A DNA stretch of 64,000 nucleotides, taken from a virus. Lineage: Duplodnaviria > Caudoviricetes. The position numbers and the translations under genes are program-made. Location of the stretch: the IMG/VR virus record IMGVR_UViG_3300021426_000072, positions 32,001 to 96,000 of that record; one strand, written 5' to 3'. Shown here piece after piece: positions 40,859 to 63,173 of the stretch. Below the pieces are notes generated by a model. The model did not search any database, had not been told where the DNA came from, and was given only the letters and a program-made list of their open reading frames with translations. How positions within the stretch are numbered: the stretch's first letter is position 1; each line of letters begins with the position of its first letter.

Positions 40859-40859
40859 T

Positions 40860-46451: not shown

Positions 46452-46694
46452 TAAGAAAACATTATCATATATTACATGAGTTGAAACATGAAAGGATAAT
46501 GCGTTTCGATGTTTGATGCAGAATTAATAAAACAAAGAATTTTAAACTGTATGAATCCAGAGTATCCATGTGATAACTGTAGATATCGTAATAGTGGATG
46601 TGAGGAACATTTACTGTCTGATGCCGTATGCGTAATTTATGAATTACAAACAGAAATAAATCAGCTAAAAGCAAGTGAACCGAAATAACTAATA

Positions 46695-46811
46695 GTATGG
46701 GTGGCGGAATATGTAGACGCTTAAAACGTAAGGCTTGTCGCCGTTAACTAAAGTTCGACAGTTGCGTGACCGCAGTACTGCTATGTAAGGTGTAAATCCT
46801 TACCCCGTATT
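46695..46811 (+). ncRNA. Aberrant tRNA-like RNA
   Basis: Acceptor GTATGGG/CCCGTAT, D region TGGCGGAAT..GTAGACGC, T arm GTAAGG-TGTAAAT-CCTTAC; no normal anticodon arm. Confidence 0.5.
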
Positions 46812-46816
46812 AGTTA

Positions 46817-46857
46817 GGTACCAAAGTTTGAAGTCATTTAAAAAAATGCATAATGGG
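46817..46857 (+). promoter_or_regulatory. Conserved phage promoter-like motif, copy 2
   Basis: GGTACCAAAGTTTGAAGTCATTTAAAAAAATGCATAATGGG, ending 4 nt before tRNA-Leu. Confidence 0.6.
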
Positions 46858-46861
46858 ATAA

Positions 46862-46943
46862 GCGGATATGGTGAAATGGTAGACACTGAGGACTTAAAAT
46901 CCTTTGGCTTTATGCCGTGAGGGTTCGAATCCCTCTATCCGCA
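46862..46943 (+). tRNA. tRNA-Leu(TAA)
   Basis: GAGGA-CTTAAAA-TCCTT; variable arm; GGTTCGAATCCC. Confidence 0.92.
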
Positions 46944-46957
46944 CTTAGGAGGCTTGT

Positions 46958-47275
46958 ATGGAAAAGAAAACATATTTCTTTATAACTGTTTTACAACGAA
47001 TGAAAAAGGATAAACTTGGTTGGCCTGATACTGGAGCTACGCGGTGCTGGGGGTTTTATACAAATAAAGATACAGCAATCACAGCGCTTCATGAAAACTG
47101 GACGGATATGGAAGAAACGATTTACAAGTATGCCGTTCTGGAGGAGTACGAAGAAGGAATATCCAATTTTACCGGTTACGAACAATGGTTTAAATTTGAT
47201 GTTGAAAAAGACGGTTATTTTGAAATTGACAAACCTCCAGAGACAAATCACTTTGCTGGATGGGCTTTTGGGTAA
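46958..47275 (+). CDS. Hypothetical protein
   Basis: RCWGFY...AVLEEYEEGI phage protein; GGAGG RBS. Confidence 0.7.
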   Translation: MEKKTYFFITVLQRMKKDKLGWPDTGATRCWGFYTNKDTAITALHENWTDMEETIYKYAVLEEYEEGISNFTGYEQWFKFDVEKDGYFEIDKPPETNHFAGWAFG

Positions 47276-47327
47276 TCAAAAGAGAGAAGAAGCAGTTAAT
47301 TACGTCAAACAACAAGGAGGAATAAAA

Positions 47328-47510
47328 ATGAAACATCTATACAACAAGCCTATGGCGGAGAAACTGGTATTCGATTATAGCGAAAACGTAGTGGCATCCA
47401 CTAACAAACCTCATCATGGTGACATGGGAATTGGTCATGGAGGTGGCGGTGGTTGTGACCATAATCCCGGTCATGGAAGCCCTCATAAGCCTCATCCCGG
47501 AAAGCATTGA
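47328..47510 (+). CDS. RiPP-precursor-like peptide (60 aa)
   Basis: AAGGAGG RBS; leader YNKPMAEKLVFDYSENVVAS followed by a His/Gly/Pro-rich core. Confidence 0.55.
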   Translation: MKHLYNKPMAEKLVFDYSENVVASTNKPHHGDMGIGHGGGGGCDHNPGHGSPHKPHPGKH

Positions 47511-47711
47511 TGGAAAAAATAGAAGAAAACTACGTCCGTCGATACCTCATTGGTATTAGTTAGGACAAGATGGATGTTGGTTTTGCAAAAGTAAAAATAA
47601 TTGCAGTTCTTGTAAAGCAAACAGAATTGCTGCAAAACAAGATAAGAAATTATTTAAACACAGAGACAAACAAAAATTATCAAAAGAAAATAATAAACAA
47701 GGAGAAAGAAA

Positions 47712-48494
47712 ATGGCTAATAAGAAGATCAAGGTAGAAGTTGAAACCAAGGAAGGAACTACTGAAACGATGGAGCTCCCTGAACGGGCAACAGAACGAAT
47801 TGAAATCAAGAAAGTTCCTGTGGAAAAAGTGCGTATCAAGATCGTCGGAGATACTCCGCTTCTTGTTCACGCATGGTCTGAAAAGGTTAAGAAGCAGCTC
47901 CTCAATGATATGCAGATGACTAAACGTGAAAAGAAGGAAAAGGAACACGAAAAGAAAGACCCGTTTGCAGACTTTGTTGAGGCTGCTTACTGGATTACTC
48001 CCATGCCGCAGGTGCGTGGTCTTGAACCCGAGAAACAGATCGAACTGTTTGAAAAGGCAATTACCGATGGTGCTCAGTTTGGCTTTCCTACAATTGCCTT
48101 CAAGAAAGCTGCTATTACCGCTTGCTATAGCGCAGGATACATTAAGAGTACGGCTCTTATGCGTCGGCTATTCCATGTGAACGCAGTTAACGGCGCACAT
48201 ATTGGATCGTCTCAGGAGCTTGCTATTATTAAGACGGAAGAACCGCCGGAACTGTCTGAAGACGTTGTAAAGGTTGGCCCTTTTAACAATCGTGTACCTG
48301 ATCTTCGTTATCGTCCGTCTTTTCGTAAGTGGTCTGTTGAACTGGAACTCAGTCTGATTAAGACAGGAATGTTTACAATGGAAGACGTTGTCAATGCAAT
48401 TGATATGGGCGGTTTCATGAACGGCGTTGGCGAATGGCGCACTGAGAAAGACGGAGAATTTGGTAACTACCATGTTTATCGAGATGGGGAATAA
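47712..48494 (+). CDS. Stand-alone Cas7/RAMP-like protein
   Basis: First strand IKIVGDTPLLVH, FPTIAFKKA helix, RYRPSF..W, and C-terminal Gly-rich loop GGFMNGVGEWRTEKDGEFG typical of RAMPs. Confidence 0.7.
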   Translation: MANKKIKVEVETKEGTTETMELPERATERIEIKKVPVEKVRIKIVGDTPLLVHAWSEKVKKQLLNDMQMTKREKKEKEHEKKDPFADFVEAAYWITPMPQVRGLEPEKQIELFEKAITDGAQFGFPTIAFKKAAITACYSAGYIKSTALMRRLFHVNAVNGAHIGSSQELAIIKTEEPPELSEDVVKVGPFNNRVPDLRYRPSFRKWSVELELSLIKTGMFTMEDVVNAIDMGGFMNGVGEWRTEKDGEFGNYHVYRDGE

Positions 48495-48496
48495 TT

Positions 48497-48988
48497 ATGG
48501 CAGCATTTGAATACAAATATCGGATTAACGGTATTGTGAAAGCGCCTGCGGAAGTAACAGGCGAGGTGTGTCAGAATATTATTAGTGAAGAAGGAACTGT
48601 TACTCCAAAAAAGTTGGTTGATGTAAGTAGACCTGAAGACGCTCCTCTTCACGATGAATTTGAGTGGAATGACGATATCGCTGCTGAAAAGTATCGTGAA
48701 GAACAGGCAAGACAGATTATTAAGAACATTGTTATCATTGAAGTGTCAGATGATGTTGATGAACCTAAAGAAGTAAAATGCTGGGTTAACAGTGACCGAG
48801 CGTTTGTTCCGACAGACACGAGGCAGCATGAATATGTAACAATAGATACAGCATTAAACAATGCTGACTGGCGTAATAATTTGATTGAGTCGGCAAAAAG
48901 AGACATGCTTTCATTTGTCCATAAATATAAGAGACTCGGAGAGTTAAATAAAATTATCACCGATATGAGCGAATTCCTTGGTGCCTAA
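48497..48988 (+). CDS. Accessory protein of the RAMP/array locus
   Basis: TPKKLVDVSRPEDAPLHDEFEWNDDIAAEKYREEQARQII; starts 2 nt after the RAMP gene and directly precedes the array. Confidence 0.7.
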   Translation: MAAFEYKYRINGIVKAPAEVTGEVCQNIISEEGTVTPKKLVDVSRPEDAPLHDEFEWNDDIAAEKYREEQARQIIKNIVIIEVSDDVDEPKEVKCWVNSDRAFVPTDTRQHEYVTIDTALNNADWRNNLIESAKRDMLSFVHKYKRLGELNKIITDMSEFLGA

Positions 48989-49044
48989 AAGTTAGAAGAC
49001 GCTATAAGATCTTTCGGAGTAGGTGAAAGGCCTGAATATGGTTA

Positions 49045-49495
49045 GGCAGCCGGGGTTGGCATAGTTGCGTTGAGTAATGTCGAAGAGGGGCAAGGTATGG
49101 CAGTCTTGGTCAGTTGAGTACTGTTACGTTCAGTCAGGTCACGTTGGGGATAGGCAGTCGTGGAGTGTAACGTCACGATAAGTTGTGGATCGGAAAGCGT
49201 TGGCAGTCTTGGTGCTGTTTGTTACGTTAAGACTAGTTCTGGATTTGCTTGTTTAGTTGCGGCAGTCTAGGTACGCTATGATGCGTACTGTTAAGCAGAG
49301 AATAGGCAGTCAAGGTAGTGCCTGTTGAGTTCCGAATTGGATGGTTATGCTATGGCAGTCTAGGTGTGGACAGGAGGCGGTTTGTCTGCGTTGGTCCCGT
49401 TACGGCAGTCGAGGTTAGTTCCGTTATGCTACGACCAGTTGGTTTATGGCAGTCATGGCGAGCTGTTGCAAGTAGAGCTGTGTTCTGACTCAGAA
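49045..49495 (+). repeat. Nine-unit array with 5-nt periodicity (GGCAGYC-NN-[Gxx-NN]n), candidate guide RNA array
   Basis: GGCAGYCNNGG at 49045, 49099, 49153, 49202, 49261, 49305, 49354, 49404, 49448; spacings 54,54,49,59,44,49,50,44. Confidence 0.9.
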
Positions 49496-49522
49496 AAGAC
49501 TTTCAGGAAAGACTGAATGGCG

Positions 49523-49544
49523 GCTCGGAAAGACGAGCATTTTT
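49523..49544 (+). terminator. Hairpin closing the array
   Basis: GCTCG-GAAAGA-CGAGC followed by ATTTTT. Confidence 0.55.
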
Positions 49545-49562
49545 AATATGGAGTGATTGTAA

Positions 49563-49892
49563 ATGAAATATAGTAAAGTTTATAACGCAGATCGAACATT
49601 GAGAGAAGAAATAAATCATTTATTAACCCATGAACCTCGTAGTGAAAGTGAAATGTTCAACGAAAATGATCATCTTTCTATAAGTGTGCGTTATCTGGAT
49701 GGCAAGGTTGTGGTTATTGAAGTTTGTGGCTGTGTTGACTACAAAGAAAATGAGTCCAACATTCCTTGGACACAAGGAATACTATATTCCAAAGAAGGAT
49801 ATGAATTAACTGTAACTGAACCCAGAGATGAGTTTTTTGGAGAATGGAATTTTGTTTACGATGACAATATTTACATCCTGAATGTAATTTAA
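49563..49892 (+). CDS. Hypothetical protein
   Basis: 109-aa ORF with GGAG RBS. Confidence 0.6.
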   Translation: MKYSKVYNADRTLREEINHLLTHEPRSESEMFNENDHLSISVRYLDGKVVVIEVCGCVDYKENESNIPWTQGILYSKEGYELTVTEPRDEFFGEWNFVYDDNIYILNVI

Positions 49893-49951
49893 TCAATCAA
49901 ACCTGAAATATATCAGCATTGGCTGTTTGTAATAAGATAGCTATGACAGAT

Positions 49952-50025
49952 GGATCATTAGCTCAGCAGGTCAGAGCAGTCGGCTCATAACCGATCGGTC
50001 TATGGTTCGAATCCATAATGATCCA
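49952..50025 (+). tRNA. tRNA with CAT anticodon, probably Ile2
   Basis: GTCGG-CTCATAA-CCGAT; body resembles Firmicutes tRNA-Ile2. Confidence 0.85.
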
Positions 50026-50973
50026 CTAATTAGGAGGATAGCGACGAGGAATGAGTGAACCGCATATGTGTATAACTTGTCAGAATTATGAACCGTATCA
50101 TTGTACACTGGACGATTCATATATTGGATATCTGTACTGTGGCACTCCAACGAAATGCAGAGGATGGAGATTGCATGAAAACTATAAAAAGGGTGGCAAG
50201 TTCTATAACAATAGACGGAAAACAGTTCGTTAAAGAAATAAACGATAGATAGGAGATTAGTAAATAAGAATGTTCAATGATGATGAATATGCCAACAAGA
50301 AAATAGAAAATGCCCGTAAGTTGCATTATCTTGAAGGACGAATGAGCGTGGGACTTGAGAAACTGCAACCCGGTGACGGAGCTATTCTTGTGCATCAATG
50401 GGTGTTTGATCTGCTCTCAACGATAGTCAGCTATCTTCTTGAGTTGAGAAGGTGGCAGAAAATCCACGATAACAATTTTTAAGTTACTCAAAAAGTAATT
50501 GAAAAAATAGGAGGATTGCGAATGAGCATGGCGTTAGTGAATAGGATTTGTCCAAAGTGCAAGAATCCAAATTATATGGTTTTCCTTGGCGATTTTTCAG
50601 AAAGATATAAATACAAGTGCATGAATTGTAATAGGTACTTTAATGATGCTGACTTTGAAGAACAGTTTCAGCCTGTTTTAAGAAGTAAGAACTATGTGAT
50701 TGTAGATATGCCGATAGAACAGGCGAGAACGATCATCGGATTAGTCGAAGATACCGTAAACGATGGTGAGTTTGAAACGGTATGGATGGATGACCAGAAA
50801 GAGCATTTGAAAAACTTTTTGGCAAGATACAAGGATGTACGTTAATACGCTAAAGGAGCATATGGCGTATCAAATTGTCGATAACTGAATTGGTAAAATA
50901 TCCGTATGTTTGCTGGTACAACAAGTAATTGGCGGTTAAATTGATACGGTATAATTTAATATACCGTAAATTA

Positions 50974-51072
50974 CGGGCGTTTCGTAACGGAAACGAGGCT
51001 GCGAAAAGATAATGCGTAAATCCATTGTCGAAGTATGAGCTGCGGTGGTTGGTTCGATTCCTGCCCGCTCGA
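50974..51072 (+). ncRNA. Degenerate tRNA-like RNA
   Basis: CGGGCG/CGCTCG ends, D-like hairpin TCGT..ACGA, GGTTCGATTCC T loop; central region atypical. Confidence 0.4.
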
Positions 51073-51075
51073 TAT

Positions 51076-51148
51076 GCCGGTATAGCTCAATGGGCAGAGC
51101 AGTTGATTTGTAATCATCAGGTTTCCAGTTCGAGTCTGGATATCGGCT
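51076..51148 (+). tRNA. tRNA-Thr(TGT)
   Basis: TGA-TTTGTAA-TCA; canonical D and T arms. Confidence 0.88.
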
Positions 51149-51655
51149 CTAGGAATGCTGCTGACTTAATATCGATTAATGGTCAGGTGAAGAGTGCTAT
51201 CGAGAATAGTCTGGCGAAGCAAATTGTCAGATATTGAACCCCCTTCGCGCGTGAAACCAAGAATATTAAATGAGGGTCTTGAAAAAAACATCTTCAGCAT
51301 TCCTTTTACATGGAGAATTACAGGTTAAAATCCTGTGTTCTCCGAAATGAAGGTACATTCAGGGACGCCTGATATTGAAGTCCACCAAAGTCACAGATTG
51401 GCTCGTTCCTTGACCGGGCGAATAAGAAGGGCTCAGGTGCGCACGTAAACCATATATAGAAAATGAAATCTGAGTATATGATAAAAGGACTTCTACCTTC
51501 TAGAGACTGACCAAATAATCGGGATCTTATATATCACTCCTGCGGGTAGTAAATAAGGACGTGGCTACTGAATAAGTACACCTGAAAGAACAGGACAGGG
51601 GCGCAGGTCACGTATAAGATTTCTTAACAGCCCGCCCGGTGGCGCAGTCTCGTAT

Positions 51656-51727
51656 AGCCCCTTAGCGTATCTGGCAGCGCAACGGACTTTGACTCCGTAT
51701 GAGATGGTTCGAATCCATCAGGGGCTG
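51656..51727 (+). tRNA. tRNA-Gln(TTG)
   Basis: ACGGA-CTTTGAC-TCCGT; GGTTCGAATCC. Confidence 0.9.
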
Positions 51728-51756
51728 CTCTTATTAATTGAATGAGGTAAACAAAT

Positions 51757-53698
51757 ATGATGAATGTTTATGATTTGTATCAAGGTTTAATCTGTATGTG
51801 TAAAGACAAAGAATGCTGTGAATGTTATGATTCTTGCCCGTATAAAAAGAGAAATGGGAATAAAGACAATTGTAACTATATGGTAGGACTTGATGCTTTG
51901 GAAACAATTGTAGAGTTAATGCAAGAAGTGGCTCAGTTAAAACAAGCTCTTAATGTTTCTGAAAAGGAGAAAAACGACAATGTTGCTACGACTTAAAGAA
52001 CAAAACGTATCTGGATATTATGGTGTAGAACAAGCTATTATAAGAAAACTTGGAGAAATTCCACCGGAGAGTTTGCTTGTTCAGATTAGAACAAAACACA
52101 GAGAAGATGAAGAATGGCGGGATATAACAGAACTGTTAATTCAAGAAGGAACCTCTGATGATCCTAAATGGATTTGGGAATCTGACTGGTGGGAAGGTGA
52201 GCAGTTTGTTGATCTCGTTGCTGTAGCTAAGATTTGGCAAGTTGACATTAGTGAAGACTTTGCTTTTGAGGAATGATATGACATACAAAGAAGCTGCTGA
52301 TATGATACGCGATGACATGCGTTTACATCATGATTATTTAAGTGGGCAATATAGGAAAGCTCTTAAACTTGCAGTCGAAGTCCTTGAAAAACAAAATGAA
52401 CCGACTTCTCCTAAATGGAGAAGCGATCCTGTAACAAAAGCACAAAAAGAAATGATTGCACAGATGCAGGAAAATGCTGGTATAAATGGAGCGTTACATT
52501 TACCTGAGTTTACGGGAACAACTAAAGGTGAAGCCTGTGATTATATTCAGGCAAACGCCCATAAACAATATGAAACAATGGACTATTTGTGCCATGAAGA
52601 TGCAGGTGACAGAAATGGTTAAGTTGACAGCAAGTCTTGAACACTGGCTTTTTGTAAATGAGCCCAAATTATTGGTTTTAATTGGATTTGGACATCTTGA
52701 ATGTTTTACCGAAGAAATGCAAAAGAAGTATTTGGAGTGGGTACAGACAGAAGAAGGACGGTCATATCTAAAAGGTGGAAAGAACTACCATGACCCAAGA
52801 TAAATAAAAGAAAGAAGAAAAAGAATCATGACTATGTATGTTGATTTTGCTGTTCAAAAGAATTGTTGGAATTTAATTGATAGTTATGGAGAAATGTGTG
52901 TTGGCTGCGGATGCTGCCTAAAAGACAAAAAGAAACGTTATGAAAGCCGCATTCGCTGCCTTGAACGATGGATAGATGAATGGAAAAATTTTGACGGCTG
53001 GATCGAAGGATGTGAAGATCTGCAAAGAAAGAACATCAGGTCAAATCTCAAATACTTTAATCGGAGATTGCGTTATTACAAATCCAGGCTGAAAAACATG
53101 GGTAATGAAAAATGAATAAGACTAAAGCACTTGTTGAACGTATCAACGCTGACGTTGAAATGCTTGTTAATTCAGAGAGTATGACAGATTGTACTTCTGC
53201 TTATGTTCGTGTTATGGACTACCTTGCTAATCTTTATCTTTCAGTAATGAAAAAGCATGTAAAAGCGGGAAAAGATCATATGTCAGTATTGCCAAAGAAA
53301 GATTGTTAAGGAAATGAGAATGTATAGCAAAGTAGATATTGGGCTGAGATGCTGTTTGGCTGATGATAGTGATTGTAAGCTTTGTCCTTATATGGGCAAA
53401 GGCACAGCGAAAATAGACTGCGCAACGCTCCTTATGAGAGACGTTTTAGAACTAGTTGAATGTCAGGAAATAAAGATAGGTATACTGCAAGTCGAAAATA
53501 GGGCATTGATAGATGCACGAATTAGAGCTTCAAAAAGAGAAGATAAAAAGAAAGGCAAACCAAATGAGCGCAACAGTTTATAAATGGATTGTTGTCTATG
53601 AAGATGGTAGAACCGAGGAAAAACGGGGAGAAGCTCCGTGGTCTTTTGCAGATGAATTGGATGAAACTCCAGTTGCTATCATCAGAAACGGATGGTAA
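51757..53698 (+). CDS. Run of small hypothetical phage ORFs
   Basis: Tightly packed co-oriented ORFs of about 60-126 aa, several Cys-rich. Confidence 0.55.
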
Positions 53699-53749
53699 TA
53701 AATTATTGCGGGTAATGGAAAAGGTATAAATTCTTGCCCCGCAATTTAT

Positions 53750-53821
53750 GGCTTGTTAGCCTAGTGGGTTAGGCACGCGGCTGTTAACCGCGCTAGGGGA
53801 GTTCAATTCTCTCACGAGCCG
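53750..53821 (+). tRNA. tRNA-Asn(GTT)
   Basis: CGCGG-CTGTTAA-CCGCG; T loop GTTCAATTC. Confidence 0.85.
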
Positions 53822-54240
53822 CATCTTATTTTATTGCGATGCCTTAGTTGGTCGTAATACAAATAAGATTGAAGGACTTAACGTTCTTCTGGGGGTTGTT
53901 TTTACAACCGCTACCTAGCTAGTAGTAAAAAAAGCTTTAACTGGGTGGCGCCCGCTCCGAAGTTATGCCCGCCAGAGACAAAAGATCGCGTATTCCGTCT
54001 AGCCAGCGGATATAAATCGACGATTTATGTACAGAGCATTAAGTGGTAATTAGATAGGAGCATTATATCATCGCCGCCGCAAGCGACGGCACATACCGGG
54101 AAAACCCCACCTTACCCAAACTTTAAGCATATACATGCTTCCGCATAAAAGTTTGGGTTCTACACGCAGAAATAAAGATAAAATTGTCTGCGTAAAACCA
54201 CCATAACAAAAGGATTAATAAAAAAAGGAGTGATTAATTT

Positions 54241-54852
54241 ATGGTGAAGGTTTATTGCACTACTACTGCTGGACGGTCTTGCGATCTGTTTGACGAGAAC
54301 ACGAAAATTCGTGAGGTTTTCGAACATTTCGGTGCGGACTATAAAGTAGGAACAAACAGTATCGAAAACGTTCGCATTACCAAGGAAGGTCTGGAAAAGA
54401 CTCTTCTGGAGTGGAAAGCTGGCGATGTGTGCCATCTGTCTTGCATTGTGAAGATTGACAATGCTGCTCGTATGGAAGTTTCTGGCGCTGCTGCTATCCT
54501 GATTTCCGATGTTTCTCTGGAAGACTGGAAGCGTGTTGAAAAGTATGCTCCTGAAGCTCTGAAGCTGTTCGACGAAAACGGAGATGCAGACTTTAAGGTT
54601 TCAACTCGTGGTTCTGCCTCCGGTACTATCACTGATCATGGCGTATCTTTCGGTGCTTACAGCAACAAAGAAGGTAAGGCTACTGTTACTATCATGCTGG
54701 ATACTGGCAACGAAGATAAGGTTGCTGCTGTTAAGGAGCTGTTCGGTAACACGCTGCTTGATCTGAATCGCATTGAAGCGAAGATTCCTGAGACACTGAA
54801 AGATATCGCAAACAAAGAAGCGGAGATCGGTAAGCTGATTACTGAAGCTTGA
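54241..54852 (+). CDS. Ubiquitin-like (beta-grasp) N-terminal domain fused to an unknown C-terminal domain
   Basis: About 75-aa N-domain with a beta-grasp-like pattern ending HLSCIVKIDNA; first gene of the E2/JAB/E1 operon; strong codon bias. Confidence 0.55.
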   Translation: MVKVYCTTTAGRSCDLFDENTKIREVFEHFGADYKVGTNSIENVRITKEGLEKTLLEWKAGDVCHLSCIVKIDNAARMEVSGAAAILISDVSLEDWKRVEKYAPEALKLFDENGDADFKVSTRGSASGTITDHGVSFGAYSNKEGKATVTIMLDTGNEDKVAAVKELFGNTLLDLNRIEAKIPETLKDIANKEAEIGKLITEA

Positions 54853-54864
54853 TCTCCGTTGCAT

Positions 54865-54900
54865 TAGGGAGCCGGGTGTTGTAACCCGGCTCCCTATTTT
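54865..54900 (+). terminator. Internal terminator/stabilising hairpin after the Ubl gene
   Basis: TAGGGAGCCGGGT/ACCCGGCTCCCTA plus TTTT. Confidence 0.75.
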
Positions 54901-54924
54901 AAAAGAAATGGAGATATAAAAGAA

Positions 54925-56457
54925 ATGTTTAGAGAAGCAATTGCTCTCATTGATCCTATTCCGAAAGAATATGGAAATAATCTTATTCGTCTGAACGACG
55001 AAGTTGACTGGTCTTTAACCTGCCTTGGTTTGGCTTTACTTAAATCTCGAATTCCCGACTATAATGGAATTGCTGGAAGATGCGATTTGTACGAAACAAG
55101 ATCTACTTTAAGAAATTGTATCATGCATTTTAAAGCGGATAAACAGGCCGCTGAAGAAGAGCATCCAGATTGTCCGGCATTCTTTTACTATACATACAGA
55201 AGTGATGAAGACGTTAATGTTCTGGAAGAATTAAACGATCCTTCCTTCAAAACAAATATAAAAATTGAAACATTAATTCGTCAGAAATCAGAAAGCAAAT
55301 GTCACGTTATTTACAATGATACCAAGCCGTGTGCTGCTATTTTCATTGATAATCGTGACATTAGAATTTATCATCTTTTAATTTCGTTTCTCTCTTTGTA
55401 TTTCCCGACTCTGTTTGCTGAAAAGCCAATGGAGAAAAAAGATTATGATGTTGTGGTCACCCTGAATAAAAAGGAACAAGAACCATTTATTCAGGCGATT
55501 AAAGAAGCTTTAATCCCGTATGTTGGTGATTTCAAAAAGACGCAAATGAAAGCGCTGATTAAAGCAATGCACAACAGTAAAATCAACGCTGTCTTCAAAG
55601 CTCTCACAAAACAGCGGGAATACTCAACTTCTTTAATGAACCAATATCGCGAAGCTCAAAGAGAAGTTAGAAGATTAAGTATTGAATATGAAGGATCTCT
55701 GGTTGTAGAAACTATGGACGAACCAGAGGAAGAACTTGTTGACTTTATTTCTTCTAACGAACAAGTTCGTACTTTAACTATGAATGGAAACGAAATCCGG
55801 TTTACAGTTCCTACCAGATTAAATAATTTTAACTGGGAAGAGTTTGAAAGCAGTAGACGCCGTGATGAAATTTCTCCAGCAGATGGAATCTTCAATGGAA
55901 AGTATGAACATGCTGGCTGGGGTACAAACAATCTTTTACCTGTGTTTATGGAGAGAGAAAACCGGAAGAAATTCTTGAGTTATATCTTTCGTGAGGATTC
56001 TGATATCTCTGTCAAGATTGTAAGTAATTATATTCTTGATCTTGTAGCGAATACAGCAACGGTTAACAAAAACTTCAATTATATTGAAGCTGATCCAATG
56101 TATAAAGATTATATTCCGAATCCTCATCATAAAATATTTGCATGTCTTGGTGGTTATGAAGGCAGAATTCCAGATTTGCTGGCAAAAAGAAATTATGTTG
56201 CTGCCGTTCAGCTTTGTATTGCGTCTGCAAGCAGCATTGATATTGCTGAAAATGAGCAGACGTTCCGTCCTTTCTTGTCTTGGTTGATGACATCAAAGAA
56301 TAAGGTTCTTATCAGGAACGATGGAGAGAATATGACTCCTGAAGAAGCTCTGATTTGGATCATTGACAAAGAAAAGAACGAAGCAAAACAGAATGAAGTA
56401 GAAGTAAAAGTTGACTTGGAAACAACAGAAACGAATAACGAGGAGAAAACAGAATGA
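54925..56457 (+). CDS. Coiled-coil protein with putative prokaryotic E2-like domain
   Basis: IPNPHHKIFACLGGY resembles the E2 HP(H/N)...C.G catalytic region; located between Ubl and JAB. Confidence 0.6.
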   Translation: MFREAIALIDPIPKEYGNNLIRLNDEVDWSLTCLGLALLKSRIPDYNGIAGRCDLYETRSTLRNCIMHFKADKQAAEEEHPDCPAFFYYTYRSDEDVNVLEELNDPSFKTNIKIETLIRQKSESKCHVIYNDTKPCAAIFIDNRDIRIYHLLISFLSLYFPTLFAEKPMEKKDYDVVVTLNKKEQEPFIQAIKEALIPYVGDFKKTQMKALIKAMHNSKINAVFKALTKQREYSTSLMNQYREAQREVRRLSIEYEGSLVVETMDEPEEELVDFISSNEQVRTLTMNGNEIRFTVPTRLNNFNWEEFESSRRRDEISPADGIFNGKYEHAGWGTNNLLPVFMERENRKKFLSYIFREDSDISVKIVSNYILDLVANTATVNKNFNYIEADPMYKDYIPNPHHKIFACLGGYEGRIPDLLAKRNYVAAVQLCIASASSIDIAENEQTFRPFLSWLMTSKNKVLIRNDGENMTPEEALIWIIDKEKNEAKQNEVEVKVDLETTETNNEEKTE

Positions 56458-57218
56458 GACATCTAATATTGTCTGAAAAAGAAAAGGAAATTTTGCGTAA
56501 AGAATTCTCAACTGCCTTTGATAAGGCAGTTGAGGAGTTTTCTTTTAATGCTTCAAAGGAGAAATTTTCTTTAACCGTAAAGTTTAATAAGCCTTCGGAG
56601 CAAAAGGTCGTCATTTCTTATACACCACAGGCTTTTGTTAAGATGTATTCTCTTGTTCATTATTATGATACCGAAATTGGTTGGTATGGCTTAGTAGAAA
56701 AGACAGGAGAATATTCGTACCGGGTTTATGATGTAAAAATCTGTAAGCAACTCGTAGATGCAGGCCGGGTAAAAACAGACGATGACGACACCAGAGAATT
56801 TTACAATTCACTGACAGATGAAGAAGTTAATGCTATGCGTTTTCAAGCTCACTCTCATGTGAATTTTAAAACTACTCCTTCTGAAATTGATATTCAGAAT
56901 CAGATTCAAATTGTAAAATCTCTTAGGAATAAAGGGTTTTATATCTTCCAGATTTGGAATAAGAAAGATGATATTAATTCTTTCGTATTTGATCTTGACG
57001 CAGGCGTTATGTACGATAAGGATGATATTATTTGCACAATTGAAAATGATGATTCAAATATTACGGATTGGCTGATGGAAACAAAAGCCTGTGTTGTGGA
57101 AAAGAAAGTACTTCCTGCTTATCCTTATTATCCTCAAAACGGAAATGTTAAAACAGAAGGATGCCAGAAGGAATTCTTTCAGGATGAATCCGGTTGGAAC
57201 GAGAGGTTTTACGAATGA
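56454..57218 (+). CDS. JAB/MPN metalloprotease
   Basis: EIGWYG and HSHVNFKTTPSEID (HxH-x7-S-x2-D); ATGA overlap with the E2 gene. Confidence 0.85.
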   Translation: MRHLILSEKEKEILRKEFSTAFDKAVEEFSFNASKEKFSLTVKFNKPSEQKVVISYTPQAFVKMYSLVHYYDTEIGWYGLVEKTGEYSYRVYDVKICKQLVDAGRVKTDDDDTREFYNSLTDEEVNAMRFQAHSHVNFKTTPSEIDIQNQIQIVKSLRNKGFYIFQIWNKKDDINSFVFDLDAGVMYDKDDIICTIENDDSNITDWLMETKACVVEKKVLPAYPYYPQNGNVKTEGCQKEFFQDESGWNERFYE

Positions 57219-57886
57219 ATTTAGCTAAAAGTGCAGAATTTTTCGATCCGTTTTCCTGTAAAGGGAAAATTCACATTATTGGATGCGGATCTGTTGGATC
57301 TACTGTAGCAGAACTGTTAGCTCGTTTTGGGCTGACTAATGTGAATTTATATGATTTCGACACGGTTGCTGAACATAATCTGGCCAATCAGATGTTTGTA
57401 TTGGATGATGTTGGGAAAAATAAAGCAGAAAAGGTATATGACCGTTGGGTAGAAATCAATCCTGAAGCAGCACATACTATCCGTGTTTTCAAGGAAGGAT
57501 GGAACGGACAGAGGTTATCAGGATATGTCTTTCTCTGTGTTGACAACATTGAACTGAGAAAGAAAATTGTCGAAGAAAATAAGTACAACCTTGACGTTAA
57601 AGCAATGTTCGATTTCAGAACTGCTTTAACCGATGGTCAGCATTATGCTGCTGACTGGGAAAGAGATGACGACATAGAGCATTTGCTTGACACAATGGAC
57701 TTTACGCATGAAGAAGCAGAAAAGAATGTTCCTGTAAGTGCATGTAAAATTGCTTTATGTGTAATGCCAACCGTATGGTCTGTAGCAATGTCTGGTGTTG
57801 TGAACTTTATTAACTTCGTCAAATATGGAAAACTTGAAAAGTCAATGATTGTAAAACCATTTGATTTTGAAACTATTATATTCTAA
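57215..57886 (+). CDS. ThiF/E1-like activating enzyme
   Basis: IIGCGSVGS, DFDTVAEHNLANQ, VGKNKA, CVDNIELR, DFR, SAC; ATGA overlap with JAB. Confidence 0.92.
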   Translation: MNLAKSAEFFDPFSCKGKIHIIGCGSVGSTVAELLARFGLTNVNLYDFDTVAEHNLANQMFVLDDVGKNKAEKVYDRWVEINPEAAHTIRVFKEGWNGQRLSGYVFLCVDNIELRKKIVEENKYNLDVKAMFDFRTALTDGQHYAADWERDDDIEHLLDTMDFTHEEAEKNVPVSACKIALCVMPTVWSVAMSGVVNFINFVKYGKLEKSMIVKPFDFETIIF

Positions 57887-58297
57887 TGCATAAAGAAATA
57901 AATCTTATTGTATAGGGTTTACATTTAATGTTATTAGATGTTTCACTTTGACCGGAAATGGAGGCACGAAGGCCTACGGCCGTCGGGACGACGTACTGGG
58001 CTCGAACCGGTGGCTGCAAAGCGTGCTGCGGGCTGCGAAGTGGCGGAGATGCTCGAGACGCAGTTCAACTGGATCAGACTTATCAGGATCTCGATAATTA
58101 ACTATCGAAATGATAGGTGAAAGCCGGATGACTGAAGAAACTGATGAACGGGAGATCGCGCAAGGAAGCAGGTGAAGTCGTGTTGGCGACAGCGCGGCAC
58201 ACGATCGGAATGAAGGGGCCCGGGGTCACATGCCTCAAAGGCGCCTGCAGCCAGGTCCTCCAGGAGACTCCAGCTCTCAACATTTTTAGTTTATGCA
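57887..58297 (+). ncRNA. Putative retron-like msr/msd ncRNA
   Basis: Flanked by inverted repeat TGCATAAA (57887-94) / TTTATGCA (58290-97) with a G right after the 5' arm; core is 58% GC in an AT-rich genome; immediately upstream of the RT. Confidence 0.6.
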
Positions 58298-58310
58298 AAG
58301 GAAGAAGAAA

Positions 58311-59465
58311 ATGTATTACGTAACAACAGTATTAAGCAAAAAGCCTGTGCAGTTAACATGGGAAGATGTCATGTTTGATAAGGTGCCGTTGAATGCACTG
58401 CAAATGAATGAATCAAACGGTACGTCTACGATCACAAGAAAATATGAAACAATTAGTCCCGAAATTCTTGAACAGGCTGATGTAGAAAAGATTATTAATT
58501 GGCTAAAACTATACAATCTTCGGTATAAAGAACTTTTTGAAAAAGACAGAAAAACTTTATACCACAGTTTCAAAATTCCTAAAGCCACGGGAGGGTATAG
58601 AGATATAAATGCTCCGTGCGACGAACTTCAGGATGCTCTTCGAGTATTGGTAAGATTCCTGTCTGAAGATTGTGGGATTTTATATCATACGGCTGCGTTC
58701 GCATATATTAAAGGACGCAGTATTGTTGATTGTGTGAAAAGACATCAGAATTTCAACAGCAATTGGTTTTTGAAAACTGATTTCAGCGGGTTCTTTCCGT
58801 CTACCACAATCGAATTTGTAATGAAAATGTATTCAAAGATATTCCCGCTTTCGGAAGTATGTAAAAATGAAGAAGGTTATGCTGAATTAAAGAAAGCATT
58901 GTCTCTTGCTTTTCTGGACGGCGGACTTCCGCAAGGAACTTGTGCTTCCCCGTTCATTACAAATTCAATGATGATTCCGATTGACCATAAATTGTCAAAT
59001 GAATTTGCGAAGCGGAATTTAATGTATACCAGATATGCAGATGACATTCACATTTCTGCAAAAGAATGTTTCCCGTGGAAAGAAATCGTGAAAAATATTG
59101 AAGACGCACTGACAGAGTTTGAAGCTCCTTTCAAGATTAAGCCGGAAAAGACTCATTTCGGTAAGAAGGCTGGCAGATCTGCAAACTGGTGTTTAGGACT
59201 TCTTTTGAATAAAGATAACAATATTACAGTTTCTGCCAAGAAGAAAGCTCAGTTTAAGGCTTCTTTGTGTTCATTTATTCTTGATACACGGAATGGAAAA
59301 TATTGGAATCTCGAAGATGTATATCATTTAAGAGGTTTGCTTTCTTATTACAGCATGGTTGAAAAAGAGTATTTTGAAAATGTAATTAAGCAACAAGAGA
59401 ACAAATGGAAAGTAAACGTAAGCAAAATTTTTAAAGATTATTTAAGCGGAACTATTAATGCGTGA
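58311..59465 (+). CDS. Retron-type reverse transcriptase
   Basis: FKIPKATGGYRDINAP, AFAYIKGRS, KTDFSGFFPS, GLPQGTCASP, YTRYADDI, KPEKT, LRGLLSYY; no maturase or nuclease domain. Confidence 0.9.
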   Translation: MYYVTTVLSKKPVQLTWEDVMFDKVPLNALQMNESNGTSTITRKYETISPEILEQADVEKIINWLKLYNLRYKELFEKDRKTLYHSFKIPKATGGYRDINAPCDELQDALRVLVRFLSEDCGILYHTAAFAYIKGRSIVDCVKRHQNFNSNWFLKTDFSGFFPSTTIEFVMKMYSKIFPLSEVCKNEEGYAELKKALSLAFLDGGLPQGTCASPFITNSMMIPIDHKLSNEFAKRNLMYTRYADDIHISAKECFPWKEIVKNIEDALTEFEAPFKIKPEKTHFGKKAGRSANWCLGLLLNKDNNITVSAKKKAQFKASLCSFILDTRNGKYWNLEDVYHLRGLLSYYSMVEKEYFENVIKQQENKWKVNVSKIFKDYLSGTINA

Positions 59466-59643
59466 GAAAAGAAATGCAGGATATTTCTGCTCAATAAATG
59501 TTATTTGTTGAAACAACAAGTATTATATAAACTTTTACCATGAAATAGTTCAAACACGAATTTTCGCGGGTTCAAGAACCCAGCTCAAATTCTTGTTGGA
59601 ACTATTTCAGGTAAGGTTGTGATAAATCATAGTTTTCTTGCGC

Positions 59644-59677
59644 AGAGCGGGTATAAAAATACTCGCTCTTTTTTTTA
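59644..59677 (+). terminator. Rho-independent terminator after RT locus
   Basis: AGAGCGGGTAT/ATACTCGCTCT plus T-tract. Confidence 0.8.
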
Positions 59678-60235
59678 TGTGGAGTTACGCCTATGTATTA
59701 ATACCGAGCTGGCCTCTCGGTGCTCCGTAATTTAATAAAAAAGAAAGATGTGCTACAACTCCCCTTGTGCTTGTTTGGACGGCGAGTAGCATAAATCAGA
59801 TTTCTCTCCATACGTCTTTTTGTTCGAGATATCTCACACAAGATACACCTTCATGTTGACCTTTCTGTATGGAGTTATTTTCTGTAAGAAGGTTCTGTGG
59901 TTGCAGAACCTTTTTCGAATGTTAGTTTAAGTAAAACGACTTTAAGTAAATGAAAGTTCAAATCTTTCACATTCGAATTATTACTGAGCGATAGAACACT
60001 TATTGGTTTATTGGCATGGCCCGTCATTTAAATAGTTATGACGTTAAATGTGATCGAGTTTGCGGATGGACTCGGCACCTCCTTTCAGTAAGAGACATTA
60101 ACCAATAGGACACTATCATCCTGCCTGCTCAAGCATGAACCCTATACGGTGCGTGTCTCTCGCCGTCTTGACAGGGAAGGCATCTCCATAAGGCAGGACT
60201 TTTGAATATAATTGGTTTGTTTCGGTAATTATTTC

Positions 60236-60275
60236 GGTACCGAAATTTGAAGCCATTTAAAAAGATATATAAGGG
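60236..60275 (+). promoter_or_regulatory. Conserved phage promoter-like motif, copy 3
   Basis: GGTACCGAAATTTGAAGCCATTTAAAAAGATATATAAGGG, upstream of RNAP 2. Confidence 0.65.
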
Positions 60276-60305
60276 AAAACGAATAAAAAACAAATCAAAC
60301 AAAAA

Positions 60306-63173
60306 TTGAATATGGAGGAGCATATGTCTGAGAAAACATATCTTAAAGAGCAAATTAGATTAGTATCATTGTCTAGCTATGATCTGTTTACAGATGAGGA
60401 ATATGACCTCTATATGCAAATAGTAAAATTAAAAAATCAACTGGATTTGTTGGATGAAGAGGAATACGATCCTGATGAAAGAAAGCAGCTTCTTGCTGAT
60501 AAGAAAAAGGCAAGGATCTCTCTTGAACGTTTAATTGCAGAGCATGAAAATATTCCTCGAACAGTAAGACTGTCATCTGTAATTTATTATCCTAAATATG
60601 CGGAATATCCATTCCCGGAAGGCATTACATATAATAATCTGAAAACAAACAAGAAGATTGCTGAGTTTTGTTGTGAACTGTCCAGAGCTATGGGTCTAAA
60701 GAATCTCGACCGAACTCTGGACTTAGTTGTTATGAAATGGAAAAACACAGAAATTCTCAGGCAAATTGTTATAAATGGATTTTATATGCCAATTCTCACA
60801 GAGGACGGTGTGGTGAAAAAACATTATCGGTTCTTTACTGCAAGCAGCGGACAATTAAGAACAGATAAGTTTATGGCAATTTCAGATGATGCATGGGCGA
60901 AAATCCGAGACAGACTTGAATGCGGGGTTGGATGGAAAGAGATTAACGCTAAAGGCGGAATTAATGCTAATAAGCTGAGTGCTTATGAAGCTCTTCCTAA
61001 CTCAGCGACAGAAGAGTGGACAGACTTTGATATTGACAGAATGATTGTAGTCGATGACTTTGAAGGAGAAGTTACAGACCGCATGATTTATATTAAGCCT
61101 GATTACACATGGGAGTCCGGGGTTAAGACTGTGAAGATAAAACACACCGACGGGTGTGGCATGATTCTCCCGTCTGTTTCGGGCGGTAACTTTATGATTA
61201 GGGCTCCTTACATTAAAGGGCTTCTTATTGTCTTCGACTTTATAAAGTTCTGTAAAGTTAACAATGTTCCGGCTGTTGTTACGGACATTTACGGTAAAGA
61301 ACATGATTTAATTAAAGAAAATATTCAAATTATCATCTTTAAAAGTATGTTTAAACTATGGAAATATTATAACAGCTGGGATGAATATAAAGAACATTTC
61401 AAAAAGAATAAATGCAAAGTTGGCAAGACGAATTATGAAGAAGAATATCTGGCAAACAAAGCGTTAAACTATCAAATGATTCAAACTCTTACAGACTTTA
61501 CAGATGAAGAAATAAAAGAATTTGTTAAATATGAGCATGATCGAATTCAAGGAATAACAAAAGATAGAGATGCAATGTTGAAAACTTTGAGGGCTAGTCC
61601 AGATTCTGAACAGCCGTATAAAGCAGCATTGGCATTATATCCAGAACTGTTACGGGAAGCTTATAGTAAAGAATCATTAAAGAACATCAGGAAAAGAATG
61701 CTCCTTGATGCCAAGTCAGGTAAGCTGAAGCTTAATAAAGAAAAGGGTGGCAACAAAAGACTGTTTGCTTGTCCTGACTTATATGGAATTTGTGAGTGGT
61801 TGTTCTGCCATGATCCAAAGCCGAAAGGCCTTTTGAGAAATGGTGAAGTTGCCTGTAAGATATTCAGGCGACATGACAAGGTGGATGTTCTAAGATCGCC
61901 TCACCTTTCGATGGAACATGGGCTGAGAAATGTAGCTCACGATCCGAGCATATATGAATGGTTCTGTACGAACGGATTATACAGTTCGTTACATGATTTA
62001 CTGAGCCGACTTTTGCAACTGGATTGGGATGGCGACCAATTAAACGTAGTTGCAGATCCATTGTTTGTTTCAATAGCAGAGAGAAACATCAAAAAATATG
62101 ATGTAATTCCATTGTTTTATGATGCAGATACGGCAGATGCAGAGAAAATTGATTTTGAAGCAATGTATCGTGCATTAAAACGAGCTCATGACTTCTCTGC
62201 TGGAGAAATTACAAGCATCGGTGAGATATCCAACATGCTGACAAGATTATGGAATAAAGATAATCCTGATCGGGATGTTGCAAATCTTCTTACAATGTTT
62301 AACAATCTGGTGATTGATGCTGCAAAGTCCGGCAAAATAAATCATTATAAAGATTATCCTCAAGTAGCAAAGAGAATAGGCAGAGCTACCGGAGGTAAAA
62401 ATGGACGTATGCCATATTGGTTCAAGTACAGTAAAAACGGCAGAAAGAATGTTTCACAGAATAAAGATAAAAAGTATGGCGAACTGAACAGCTCTACCAT
62501 GAGCCGTATTTGTATGGCATTTTCCGACATAGGAAACATCAATATGAATTATGCCGGAATTCCTCAGTTCAATTGGCAAATGCTGCTTAGTGAGCCATGC
62601 CCAAATTCAAAACCTGAAATCCAGGAAATGTTCTGTGAAATGGATAACGCAAATAAAGCATCTGTAATTGAATCACAGGATGTGTCCTATACAAGTGAAA
62701 AGCAATTAGTAAATGGATATGCAATCGTAGCAGAAGATATTATCAACAGAATGATTGAAAGATACGGTTCTCTCGAAACTGTATATCCTTATATAGCCAA
62801 ATATTTATTCGCGGGTGAGGGACAGAACAAGTCTGCTCACAAGCAAATGTTCTGGCGAGTATTTGGCGAGATTGCTTTAAGAAATATTAAGGCTAACCTT
62901 ACCAACTGCGATACTTGCCCTTCTTGTGGGATAAAAATACCAAGCTGGGTAAAGAATCATATTTGCATAAAGAATACACAAGGGTTTTATGAGTGCATAG
63001 ACTGTGGAGCTATGTGCGAAAGAAAGAACCCTCTTCAATGCAGATGTGAAGGTTGTCAGGAAAAATACAGAGCAATAACAAAGAAAGCCCGTCAGAGAGA
63101 AAGAAGAGAATTGCATAAGGAGTTGATCGCAAAACGTACTACAGTCTTGCAATCGTTCTCGACAGAGATGTAA
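60306..63173 (+). CDS. YonO-like single-subunit RNA polymerase 2 with C-terminal Zn ribbons
   Basis: TASSGQLR, HTDGCGMI..IRAPYIKG, RSPHL, catalytic DWDGD, IDAAKSG; CPSC/CIDC/CEGC. True start may be 60324. Confidence 0.88.
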   Translation: MNMEEHMSEKTYLKEQIRLVSLSSYDLFTDEEYDLYMQIVKLKNQLDLLDEEEYDPDERKQLLADKKKARISLERLIAEHENIPRTVRLSSVIYYPKYAEYPFPEGITYNNLKTNKKIAEFCCELSRAMGLKNLDRTLDLVVMKWKNTEILRQIVINGFYMPILTEDGVVKKHYRFFTASSGQLRTDKFMAISDDAWAKIRDRLECGVGWKEINAKGGINANKLSAYEALPNSATEEWTDFDIDRMIVVDDFEGEVTDRMIYIKPDYTWESGVKTVKIKHTDGCGMILPSVSGGNFMIRAPYIKGLLIVFDFIKFCKVNNVPAVVTDIYGKEHDLIKENIQIIIFKSMFKLWKYYNSWDEYKEHFKKNKCKVGKTNYEEEYLANKALNYQMIQTLTDFTDEEIKEFVKYEHDRIQGITKDRDAMLKTLRASPDSEQPYKAALALYPELLREAYSKESLKNIRKRMLLDAKSGKLKLNKEKGGNKRLFACPDLYGICEWLFCHDPKPKGLLRNGEVACKIFRRHDKVDVLRSPHLSMEHGLRNVAHDPSIYEWFCTNGLYSSLHDLLSRLLQLDWDGDQLNVVADPLFVSIAERNIKKYDVIPLFYDADTADAEKIDFEAMYRALKRAHDFSAGEITSIGEISNMLTRLWNKDNPDRDVANLLTMFNNLVIDAAKSGKINHYKDYPQVAKRIGRATGGKNGRMPYWFKYSKNGRKNVSQNKDKKYGELNSSTMSRICMAFSDIGNINMNYAGIPQFNWQMLLSEPCPNSKPEIQEMFCEMDNANKASVIESQDVSYTSEKQLVNGYAIVAEDIINRMIERYGSLETVYPYIAKYLFAGEGQNKSAHKQMFWRVFGEIALRNIKANLTNCDTCPSCGIKIPSWVKNHICIKNTQGFYECIDCGAMCERKNPLQCRCEGCQEKYRAITKKARQRERRELHKELIAKRTTVLQSFSTEM

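Follow-up and report, generated by a model that had tools for sequence, protein, structure and literature searches.

We analysed a 64,000-nucleotide stretch of a virus (Duplodnaviria; Caudoviricetes), hereafter the window, which corresponds to bases 32001-96000 of the 127,247-bp IMG/VR virus record IMGVR_UViG_3300021426_000072, a record that is 92% complete (CheckV). Between a tRNA-Asn gene (53750-53822) and a large gene starting at 60306, five plus-strand genes encode a ubiquitin-like (Ubl) fusion protein, an E2-like protein, a JAB peptidase, an E1 and a retron-type reverse transcriptase (RT), and a retron-like non-coding RNA (ncRNA) lies between the last two. Retrons are known for guarding toxic effectors (e.g. 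nucleases, NAD+-degrading enzymes and membrane proteins), and the bacterial Ubl systems, i.e. Bil, Bub and the Cap2/3 pair of the cyclic-oligonucleotide-based antiphage signalling system (CBASS), are separate defences. The locus is real, conserved and intact, and we read it as a retron whose partner module has no precedent. The block comprises the following features:

54241-54852, plus strand: A203, 203 aa, Ubl domain fused to a C-terminal domain (Cdom)
54852-54909, plus strand: candidate attenuator hairpin, a G+C-rich inverted repeat (arms 54852-54877 and 54884-54909) followed by a T-rich tail, TATTTT
54925-56457, plus strand: B510, 510 aa, E2-like protein
56454-57218, plus strand: C254, 254 aa, JAB/JAMM metallopeptidase
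57215-57886, plus strand: D223, 223 aa, ThiF/E1 (stop codon 57884-86)
57887-58297, plus strand: retron-like ncRNA unit, 411 nt
58293-59465, plus strand: retron-type RT, 390 or 384 aa (open reading frame (ORF) opening at 58293, likely start at 58311)
59644-59677, plus strand: intrinsic terminator closing the block (11-bp stem, 4-nt loop, T8 run)

An initial annotation, made from the sequence alone, had described this locus as a Ubl-E2-JAB-E1 operon joined to a retron ncRNA and RT, and the physical arrangement it reported was confirmed. Two ATGA overlaps couple the genes for the E2-like protein, JAB and E1, at 56454-57 (B510/C254) and 57215-18 (C254/D223). The a1 arm of the proposed a1/a2 repeat begins at 57887, 1 nt past the E1 stop codon, and its partner at 58290-58297 adjoins the RT ribosome-binding site. 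The first clear intergenic terminator sits past the RT; our terminator scan predicted none between E1 and the RT, and its other terminator-like hairpin (56505-56536) falls within the JAB coding sequence. The A203 gene is parted from the enzyme genes by the hairpin at 54852-54909, which the scan did not list. The lack of a typical effector was also borne out, with no classical toxic effector found among the cassette proteins in Pfam, PADLOC, PHROGs and NCBIfam scans. A DNA search with the block gave no match among deposited phage genomes.

Components of the Ubl module

A203 had no family match by sequence. Its AlphaFold2 (AF2) model (predicted local distance difference test score, pLDDT, of 90) contains a beta-grasp domain in residues 1-75, and the best VIA match was 8tyz_B, the Ubl chain of a bacterial (Bil) E1-E2-Ubl complex (Z 9.4, root-mean-square deviation 2.2 A, 72 residues). 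Among the VIA matches listed for A203, 50/50 were ubiquitin-like folds, and Foldseek matched the protein to SUMO, NEDD8 and ubiquitin; the VIA list is filled by the Ubl domain and says nothing on the fold of Cdom. The gene labelled Ubl in the initial annotation does encode a beta-grasp Ubl, which makes up only residues 1-75 of a 203-aa fusion with two parts:

54241-54465, plus strand: Ubl domain (residues 1-75 of A203), ending ...VKIDNA, beta-grasp fold in the AF2 model
54466-54852 including the stop codon, plus strand: Cdom, 128 aa, beta strands and a 40-residue C-terminal helix, fused behind the Ubl

Cdom had no match in Pfam, PHROG, NCBIfam, PADLOC, PDB sequences/profile or the Atlas. In about half of the related loci it is a gene of its own, most often placed immediately before the Ubl gene but in some cases after it, and the stand-alone Ubl genes of relatives (∼75 aa) mostly stop exactly after ...VVKADNA. 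Other Ubl ends in relatives are KADGG-CC, KADGG-TN, KADGA-R(K), KADSA-A(I), KTSNA and KAQGNA-I. The family keeps a conserved [N/G/S]-[A/G] dipeptide at the position of ubiquitin's Gly-Gly, after which the protein either ends, continues for 1-4 residues or runs into an entire fused domain. A reactive C-terminal Gly was not found at the Ubl end in the window and in most relatives, which have Asn-Ala; Gly-Gly, Gly-Ala or Ser-Ala occur in a minority. Judged from these sequences, the series of C-termini is what is seen in modifier precursors that a protease trims. In Bub, a Ubl-E2 fusion is cut by JAB (PMC11601596), and in Bil the terminal Ala of the Ubl is removed and a Gly exposed (PMC10557695). 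By analogy with Bil, the predicted cut could fall one residue before the common Ubl ORF end.

The AF2 model of B510 (pLDDT 91.5) consists of an N-terminal alpha/beta domain, a 65-residue helix and a C-terminal domain. For the C-terminal domain, the only non-coiled-coil VIA matches were RWD/UBC-like: the Knl1 structure 4nf9_A (Z 7.4, residues 262-438), with further matches to the SEA complex, Ltn1 and KNL1 (Z 6.3-7.4 overall, residues 262-465). The secondary structure of this domain follows the UBC order (helix, four strands, motif loop, Cys, three helices), and it carries the motif N-P-H-x5-C-x-G, in which His401 and Cys407 are invariant across 120/120 non-redundant cassettes from the related loci described below. 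By sequence, B510 had no match in Pfam, PHROGs, NCBIfam, PADLOC or PDB sequences and matched no E2 sequence family; Foldseek found no match in the PDB and, in BFVD, a single one to an uncharacterised gut phage protein. The Atlas offered one lead, a viral cluster with Prok-E2_D on 14% of its members. The B510 family itself is large (2139 clusters at 50% identity, from 1.84 billion representatives searched), and 0/111 B510 homolog clusters carried a precomputed Pfam domain. From the model and the motif we call B510 E2-like with moderate confidence. The earlier label of 'E2-like' fits the C-terminal third, by fold and motif, and does not describe the whole three-part, 510-aa protein. We speculate that the long helices of Cdom and B510 might pair.

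C254 matched PADLOC JAB models weakly (1e-4) and, among PDB sequences, had a weak match to Rpn11. It nevertheless has the full JAMM motif, Glu74 ... His133-x-His135-x7-Ser143-x2-Asp146, invariant in 120/120 cassettes, which upholds its assignment as a JAB peptidase. D223 is a single-domain ThiF/E1, and here the E1 call was supported by a Pfam ThiF match (7e-20). PADLOC CBASS E1-E2 models also matched (2e-16), aligning with the Rossmann part of D223 only. Matches in the PDB include UBA5, Uba1, MoeB, MccB, PaaA and Cap2, and the best NCBIfam matches are of the ThiF, TcdA and MoeB types. The D223 motifs are GCGSVGS, DFDxVExHN and Cys177 (in PVSAC); the GxGxxG glycines are kept in 119/120 cassettes and Cys177 in 120/120. 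On the strength of these conserved residues, the JAMM peptidase, the E1 and the E2-like domain of B510 are all predicted to be catalytically intact.

The retron-type RT and its ncRNA

The best PADLOC model for the RT was RT_II-A (3.5e-50), and 25/25 best models were retron RTs; in NCBIfam, group II intron and defence-associated RT (DRT) models scored far lower than the best retron model. The nearest profiles are those of retron types II-A, III-A and I-A (St85, Ec83 and Ec78 relatives), and the nearest solved structures are the RTs of retrons Ec83, Ec78, Ec67 and Ec86. By profiles and nearest structures, the RT belongs to the retron clade of prokaryotic RTs, as the initial annotation had it. 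The two aspartates of its YADD motif are kept in 120/120 and 119/120 cassettes, respectively, and a conserved N-terminal extension of ∼60-80 residues precedes the best retron profile match. Among deposited phage RTs, the closest homolog shares 37% identity. The ORF opens with ATG 58293, which falls inside a2, and ATG 58311, preceded by AAGGAAG, lies 14 nt past a2. Because a2 overlaps the first of these and the RTs of relatives start ∼14 nt past a2, the start is most likely ATG 58311 (384 aa).

Two other kinds of RT element were considered and rejected. A diversity-generating retroelement was discarded since the 64-kb window holds no copy of the RT-proximal non-coding stretch (template/variable repeat) and the RT profiles are retron-class. 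A group II intron was discarded since there was no Rfam intron match and the group II maturase model scored much lower than the retron models.

The spacer of 406 nt from the E1 stop codon to the RT ORF contains no convincing ORF; its G+C content is 45-55%, compared with ∼38% around it, and that of the ncRNA unit is 51-55% against a local 38%. The ncRNA unit in this spacer is laid out as follows:

57887-57894, plus strand: a1 arm, TGCATAAA
57895, plus strand: conserved G after a1
57900-57920, plus strand: hairpin 1
57921-57941, plus strand: hairpin 2
57942-57956, plus strand: conserved single strand, CACTTTGCCCGG-like
57957-58289, plus strand: variable structured part, G+C-rich
58290-58297, plus strand: a2 arm, TTTATGCA, perfect partner of a1

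When the E1-RT spacers of relatives were aligned, two conserved 5′ hairpins and the conserved single strand (CACTTTGCCCGG-like) emerged, and 5/8 pairs of hairpin 2 had changed on both sides (RNAalifold, MAFFT-based alignment). A covariance model (R1) gave 60 matches in 72 sources, all on the RT strand except one marginal partial match. Each locus has between one and three such units, which sit directly past the E1 stop and/or the RT stop; the window has one, at 57880-57975 (69.9 bits, E 4e-14). In the R1 alignment, which is fitted to the model, 13/13 pairs of the 5′ hairpins change on both sides, with a covariation score of 0.66 versus 0.09-0.17 for slid partners, and 88% of cells are paired versus 37-47% with the partner slid. 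The MAFFT-based RNAalifold result agrees with this.

Alone, the 8-nt a1/a2 repeat of the window is weak, as ∼12% of window shuffles match it or do better. However, ∼30 independent units in relatives have the same in-register architecture with different, perfectly compensating a1/a2 arms of 8-13 nt. Arm a1 lies within the first 28 nt of the unit, and its perfect reverse complement is mostly 250-330 nt downstream. The arms differ among units (e.g. TACGTAAA, CACTTAAA, GACTGTAAT and ATAAGCCTGTAAT) and most end just ahead of a G. The minimum free energy fold of the window ncRNA closes with a1/a2. As far as sequence comparison can tell, the ncRNA has the a1/a2-plus-priming-G anatomy of retrons, with two conserved 5′ recognition hairpins and a hypervariable template part. 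It had no Rfam match, and its variable part showed no nucleotide similarity in any fetched relative.

Two or three different ncRNA units are arrayed in some relatives, before the RT, after it or on both sides (L013, L004, L056, L085 and L090). In L013-type loci only 10 nt part E1 from the RT, which is followed by two tandem units (L013:11030-11522). Within the window ncRNA, 57961-58260 contains 10 different 6-bp palindromes, compared with 4.2 +/- 1.9 in mononucleotide shuffles (P about 0.007), an excess that stem-rich structure may explain. A further long hairpin at 59541-59609 (30-nt arms, 83% complementary), 75 nt past the RT stop and ahead of the terminator, was unmatched by the ncRNA model.

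Distribution and genomic setting of the block

The gene-neighbourhood survey suggested by the initial annotation began from an E1 profile search, which found 153 IMG/VR stretches, of which the best 80 were fetched, and 67 stretches in species-representative genomes. The latter are nearly all metagenome-assembled genomes (MAGs), mostly of Clostridia of gut and rumen. Fetched loci were scored with profile hidden Markov models from aligned relatives, and with phmmer for the RT and for F955, the product of the large gene at 60306. This gave 142 distinct related loci, as follows:

IMG/VR contigs: 76 distinct loci (among the best 80 of 153 stretches); RT present in 74; contig cut 330 nt-1.2 kb past E1 in 2; no RT within 6.9 kb in 0
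MAG contigs: 66 distinct loci; RT present in 58; contig cut 330 nt-1.2 kb past E1 in 5; no RT within 6.9 kb in 3

The RT stands beside the E1 module in 132/135 informative loci (74/74 in IMG/VR and 58/61 in MAGs), and independent assortment of the RT and the E1 operon was not seen in these related phages. Among the MAG exceptions, L131 has an RT 7.3 kb downstream of E1 with two in-frame TAA codons (L165, G002:C1:90004-91089), and the contig of L132, a close relative of L131, ends before that distance is reached. The copy in the L131 genome is possibly decaying, as is that of another locus, L155, which is taken up below.

The same block was found around divergent B510 homologs (23-29% identity) in ENA, Logan and NCBI assemblies. 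It holds together while its flanks vary, insertions of 1-2 kb enter and the ncRNA switches sides of the RT. In some relatives inserted ORFs of up to 1.5 kb separate E1 and the RT, and in L150 the RT lies between JAB and E1. The RNA-polymerase-like flanking gene (F955) adjoins the cassette in some relatives only. Two complete related phages (G004 and G007), whose copy of the flanking gene is 35% identical, have neither E1 nor a retron-type RT. One of them has no RT at all and G004 carries an unrelated, non-retron RT (L179:5793-6866), whose best PADLOC matches are a generic RT model and UG17-type models.

Divergence within the block was compared across the 120 non-redundant cassettes for the cassette genes only (RT, E1, JAB and B510). 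Distances of the RT correlated with those of E1 (Mantel r 0.75), JAB (0.80) and B510 (0.80; p = 0.001), about as strongly as distances within the Ubl module correlated with each other (0.78-0.89). Together, these comparisons support that the RT and the Ubl module are inherited together as one block. The central proposal of the initial annotation, that this phage joins a Ubl-E2-JAB-E1 module to a retron ncRNA and RT, is reinforced by the conservation of the whole block in relatives.

A tyrosine integrase is encoded elsewhere in the same ∼127-kb genome, and this large gut phage is probably temperate. The integrase suggests that the system may protect lysogens or aid the phage in conflict. The hosts are likely Clostridia. 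On large MAG contigs, ribosomal protein L2 was uninformative for prophage integration, as its matches were on contigs not tied to the cassette.

Upstream of the cassette, nine tRNA genes (Ser, Lys, Pro, Arg, Leu, Met, Thr, Gln and Asn), all on the plus strand, are spread across 15 kb (38899-53822). A 418-nt non-coding stretch (53823-54240; G+C 47-49%) separates tRNA-Asn from the Ubl gene. It has no listed plus-strand ORF of at least 40 aa, no Rfam match and no similarity in any fetched relative, and one 91-aa minus-strand ORF overlaps its 3′ end; it could hold the operon promoter and leader, or another RNA. Downstream, the 955-aa F955 (60306-63173, plus strand) has phrog_8308 as its sole match (1e-179), and its homologs in related contigs have weak or faint precomputed matches to the Pfam RNA-dependent RNA polymerase family RdRP (PF05183). 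An element of ∼50 nt (81-89% identity) is repeated at 60228-60279, 31580-31624 and 46809-46861, with the first copy preceding the RNA-polymerase-like gene; the element may be a phage promoter or a regulatory motif. In relatives, a Thg1-like gene (3′-5′ nucleotide addition) directly follows the RT in L016 (L016:11624-12688), and two loci have DUF2828 genes a few kb ahead of the cassette (L015:3817-4602; L016:389-1876). These neighbours hint at RNA repair or tRNA functions nearby.

Relation to known systems and proposed function

Retrons comprise an RT, an msr-msd ncRNA and an effector, and have been classified into 13 types (Mestre et al. 2020, PMC7736814). Like them, the block has a retron-class RT with YADD. 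Its ncRNA is adjacent and on the same strand, is bracketed by a1/a2 arms with a G following a1, and combines conserved 5′ hairpins with a hypervariable template. The accessory genes co-evolve with the RT (132/135 loci adjacent; Mantel r 0.75-0.80), and the carrier is a probably temperate phage, as is the case for many retrons. In contrast to known retrons, the partner here is a four- to five-protein Ubl conjugation cascade, NLG or CLG takes the place of the VTG triplet, the RT scores under the St85 family cut-off, and the ncRNA is long (250-410 nt), with between one and three units in a locus, before or after the RT. The words ThiF, JAB and ubiquitin are absent from the main text of the 13-type classification (PMC7736814).

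Among Ubl systems, the parts correspond to those of BilABCD, the type I/II bacterial ISG15-like ubiquitination operons (PMC10557695): a Ubl, a stand-alone E2 of UBC fold with a catalytic Cys (its putative counterpart being the E2-like domain of B510), a JAB that pre-processes the Ubl, and an E1. The beta-grasp fold of the Ubl (Z 9.4 to 8tyz_B) and its precursor forms are also shared, and Bil has a role in phage conflict. However, E1 here is a single 223-aa adenylation domain (one ThiF domain) rather than IAD-AAD-CYS, and the E2-like domain ends a 510-aa protein of an undescribed family. Moreover, most members have a Ubl ending in Asn-Ala, Cdom is an additional protein, and the system is phage-encoded and locked to a retron. 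Bub (6E/DUF6527, PMC11601596) likewise has a short E1 and makes its Ubl as an N-terminal fusion to be cut by JAB. Bub fuses Ubl-E2 and JAB-E1 (type I) or E2-E1 (type II), uses serine oxyesters and has the DUF6527 protease BubE, whereas here the genes are separate, the cysteines are invariant and the Ubl is fused to Cdom instead of E2; no cassette protein matched the Pfam model of DUF6527.

Type II CBASS resembles the block in attaching an E1-like enzyme and a JAB (Cap2/Cap3) as regulators to a nucleic-acid-polymerase-type sensor, and CBASS E1-E2 and JAB models were the best PADLOC defence-library matches. It differs in that the block has a free Ubl and no E1-E2 fusion, and no cassette protein matched a PADLOC CD-NTase model. 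PRTRC (ParB-related, ThiF-related cassette), found on plasmids and integrative elements, is also a mobile-element cassette with ThiF-like, JAB-like, Prok-E2-like and small beta-grasp proteins. In contrast, no ParB is present here and PRTRC is defined without an RT or ncRNA; E1 scored 38.4 bits against a cut-off of 144.75 with PRTRC_ThiF (TIGR03736), and no other PRTRC model matched at E <= 0.01. With the ThiF and MoeB models of sulfur-carrier systems, E1 reached 35-65 bits against cut-offs of 152-376. In conclusion, in its working the system resembles a retron coupled to a Bil-like cascade, but neither family as defined includes it. In full-text searches of the literature, no paper joined a retron to E1, JAB or a Ubl, and the Bil and Bub papers (PMC10557695, PMC11601596) make no mention of retrons or reverse transcriptases.

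We consider it likely that the block is one functional unit, a phage-borne retron whose partner is a complete Bil-like Ubl conjugation cascade that replaces the classical toxic effector, and it is probably used in phage-host or phage-phage conflict. The operon would be transcribed as one RNA from upstream of A203 through the RT, possibly attenuated past A203. The RT would copy part of the ncRNA into multicopy single-stranded DNA (msDNA) and stay bound to it. JAB would cut the Ubl precursor at the ...DNA/A junction, maturing the Ubl, a step for which Bub and Bil, where JAB cuts Ubl fusion precursors, give precedent (PMC11601596, PMC10557695). E1 would then adenylate the Ubl and pass it to the E2-like cysteine, Cys407 of B510. 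As sensor or scaffold, the RT-msDNA particle may gate Ubl conjugation or aim it onto proteins of competing phages or of the host, much as Bil systems tag phage tail proteins, and JAB may reverse the conjugation. On the more specific claim, that one machine couples reverse-transcribed DNA to Ubl conjugation, with RT-msDNA licensing or aiming the E1-E2 cascade or being switched by Ubl attachment, our judgement is evenly balanced.

Within a linked system, the main alternative is that the cascade regulates the retron. The Ubl would be conjugated to the RT (or Cdom/B510 bound to it), switching msDNA synthesis or complex assembly, with msDNA/RT as the output. In type II CBASS, Cap2 primes the CD-NTase by conjugation and Cap3 reverses this, and the similarity of D223 to CBASS Cap2 E1 domains fits such a role, as do the conserved ∼60-80-residue extension of the RT beyond the retron profile, the tight correlation between RT and Ubl-module distances, and the absence of a classical toxic effector from the cassette scans. 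However, the Ubl here is free and has its own precursor processing, whereas in CBASS the enzyme's own tail is conjugated, and regulation of the RT would leave the system without an obvious effector; we regard it as unlikely. We find it less likely again that a Bil-like Ubl system and a stand-alone retron are two independent modules, neighbours only by lineage inheritance. In its favour, (msr-msd)-RT cassettes that stand alone are on record (PMC7736814), the loci all come from a single broad group of phages, and inserted ORFs as long as 1.5 kb can part E1 from the RT. In addition, L117 has the Ubl module with no RT match found in its MAG, and L155 keeps Cdom, Ubl, a shortened E1 and the RT without B510 and JAB. 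Mere neighbours would not be expected to stay adjacent down to 23-25% B510 identity while flanking genes change, to survive rearrangement (L150; ncRNA on either side of the RT), or to be jointly absent, as E1 and the retron RT are in G004 and G007. Nor does this explanation sit well with an ncRNA that starts 1 nt past the E1 stop with no predicted terminator between, or with RT distances that correlate as strongly as those within the Ubl module.

The E1/beta-grasp/JAB set might instead serve a sulfur-carrier or adenylation pathway (ThiS/ThiF, CysO/Mec+ or MccB) that modifies a nucleic acid (msDNA or tRNA) or a peptide, with the B510 cysteine as a relay. The minimal, single-domain ThiF-like E1 with its ThiF, TcdA and MoeB types of NCBIfam match, the presence of MccB and PaaA among its PDB matches, the Asn-Ala rather than Gly-Gly end of the Ubl and the many tRNA genes of the phage could all be read this way. 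Sulfur carriers, however, end in Gly-Gly and lack an E2-like partner, whereas the set here is always accompanied by an E2/RWD-like domain whose His and Cys are invariant. The precursor tails and fusions of the Ubl match protein-modifier systems (PMC11601596), its best structural match is a Bil conjugation Ubl, and all sulfur-pathway family scores are far under their cut-offs, which together make this chemistry very improbable.

Several observations count against a retron joined to a conjugation cascade. The best NCBIfam model for the RT, retron_St85_RT, scored 184.6 bits, under its curated cut-off of 235, so that membership of this family was not reached. The VTG that follows YADD in retron RTs is absent; the window RT has CLG, and the family has N, M or C, then L (117/120) and G (120/120). 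The template part of the ncRNA folds as several hairpins and not as the single long hairpin typical of msd. The E2 assignment of B510 comes from fold matches of Z 6-7, within the noise of long helices, plus the motif, with no sequence family behind it. The L117 and L155 loci also belong on this side, and since all loci come from one broad gut/rumen phage group, the co-occurrence and the distance correlation could partly reflect shared descent.

The idea of a retron paired with a Ubl conjugation cascade is directly testable, given its small parts and a full set of identified residues for the predicted catalysis. If the coupling is true, this would be a new retron type, common among the temperate phages of gut Clostridia, with protein tagging as its output in place of a toxin, and arrays of up to three template RNAs might give several specificities. 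The long variable template RNAs may also interest users of retrons for making DNA in cells. The system is abundant, with more than 2000 clusters at 50% identity for the E2-like family alone, all unannotated. A hard-wired pairing would mean both a new retron output, covalent protein tagging, and a new input to prokaryotic ubiquitination, a DNA-RNA-protein sensor. Since the system is carried by phages and not by their hosts, it bears on phage-phage and phage-host conflict in gut communities.

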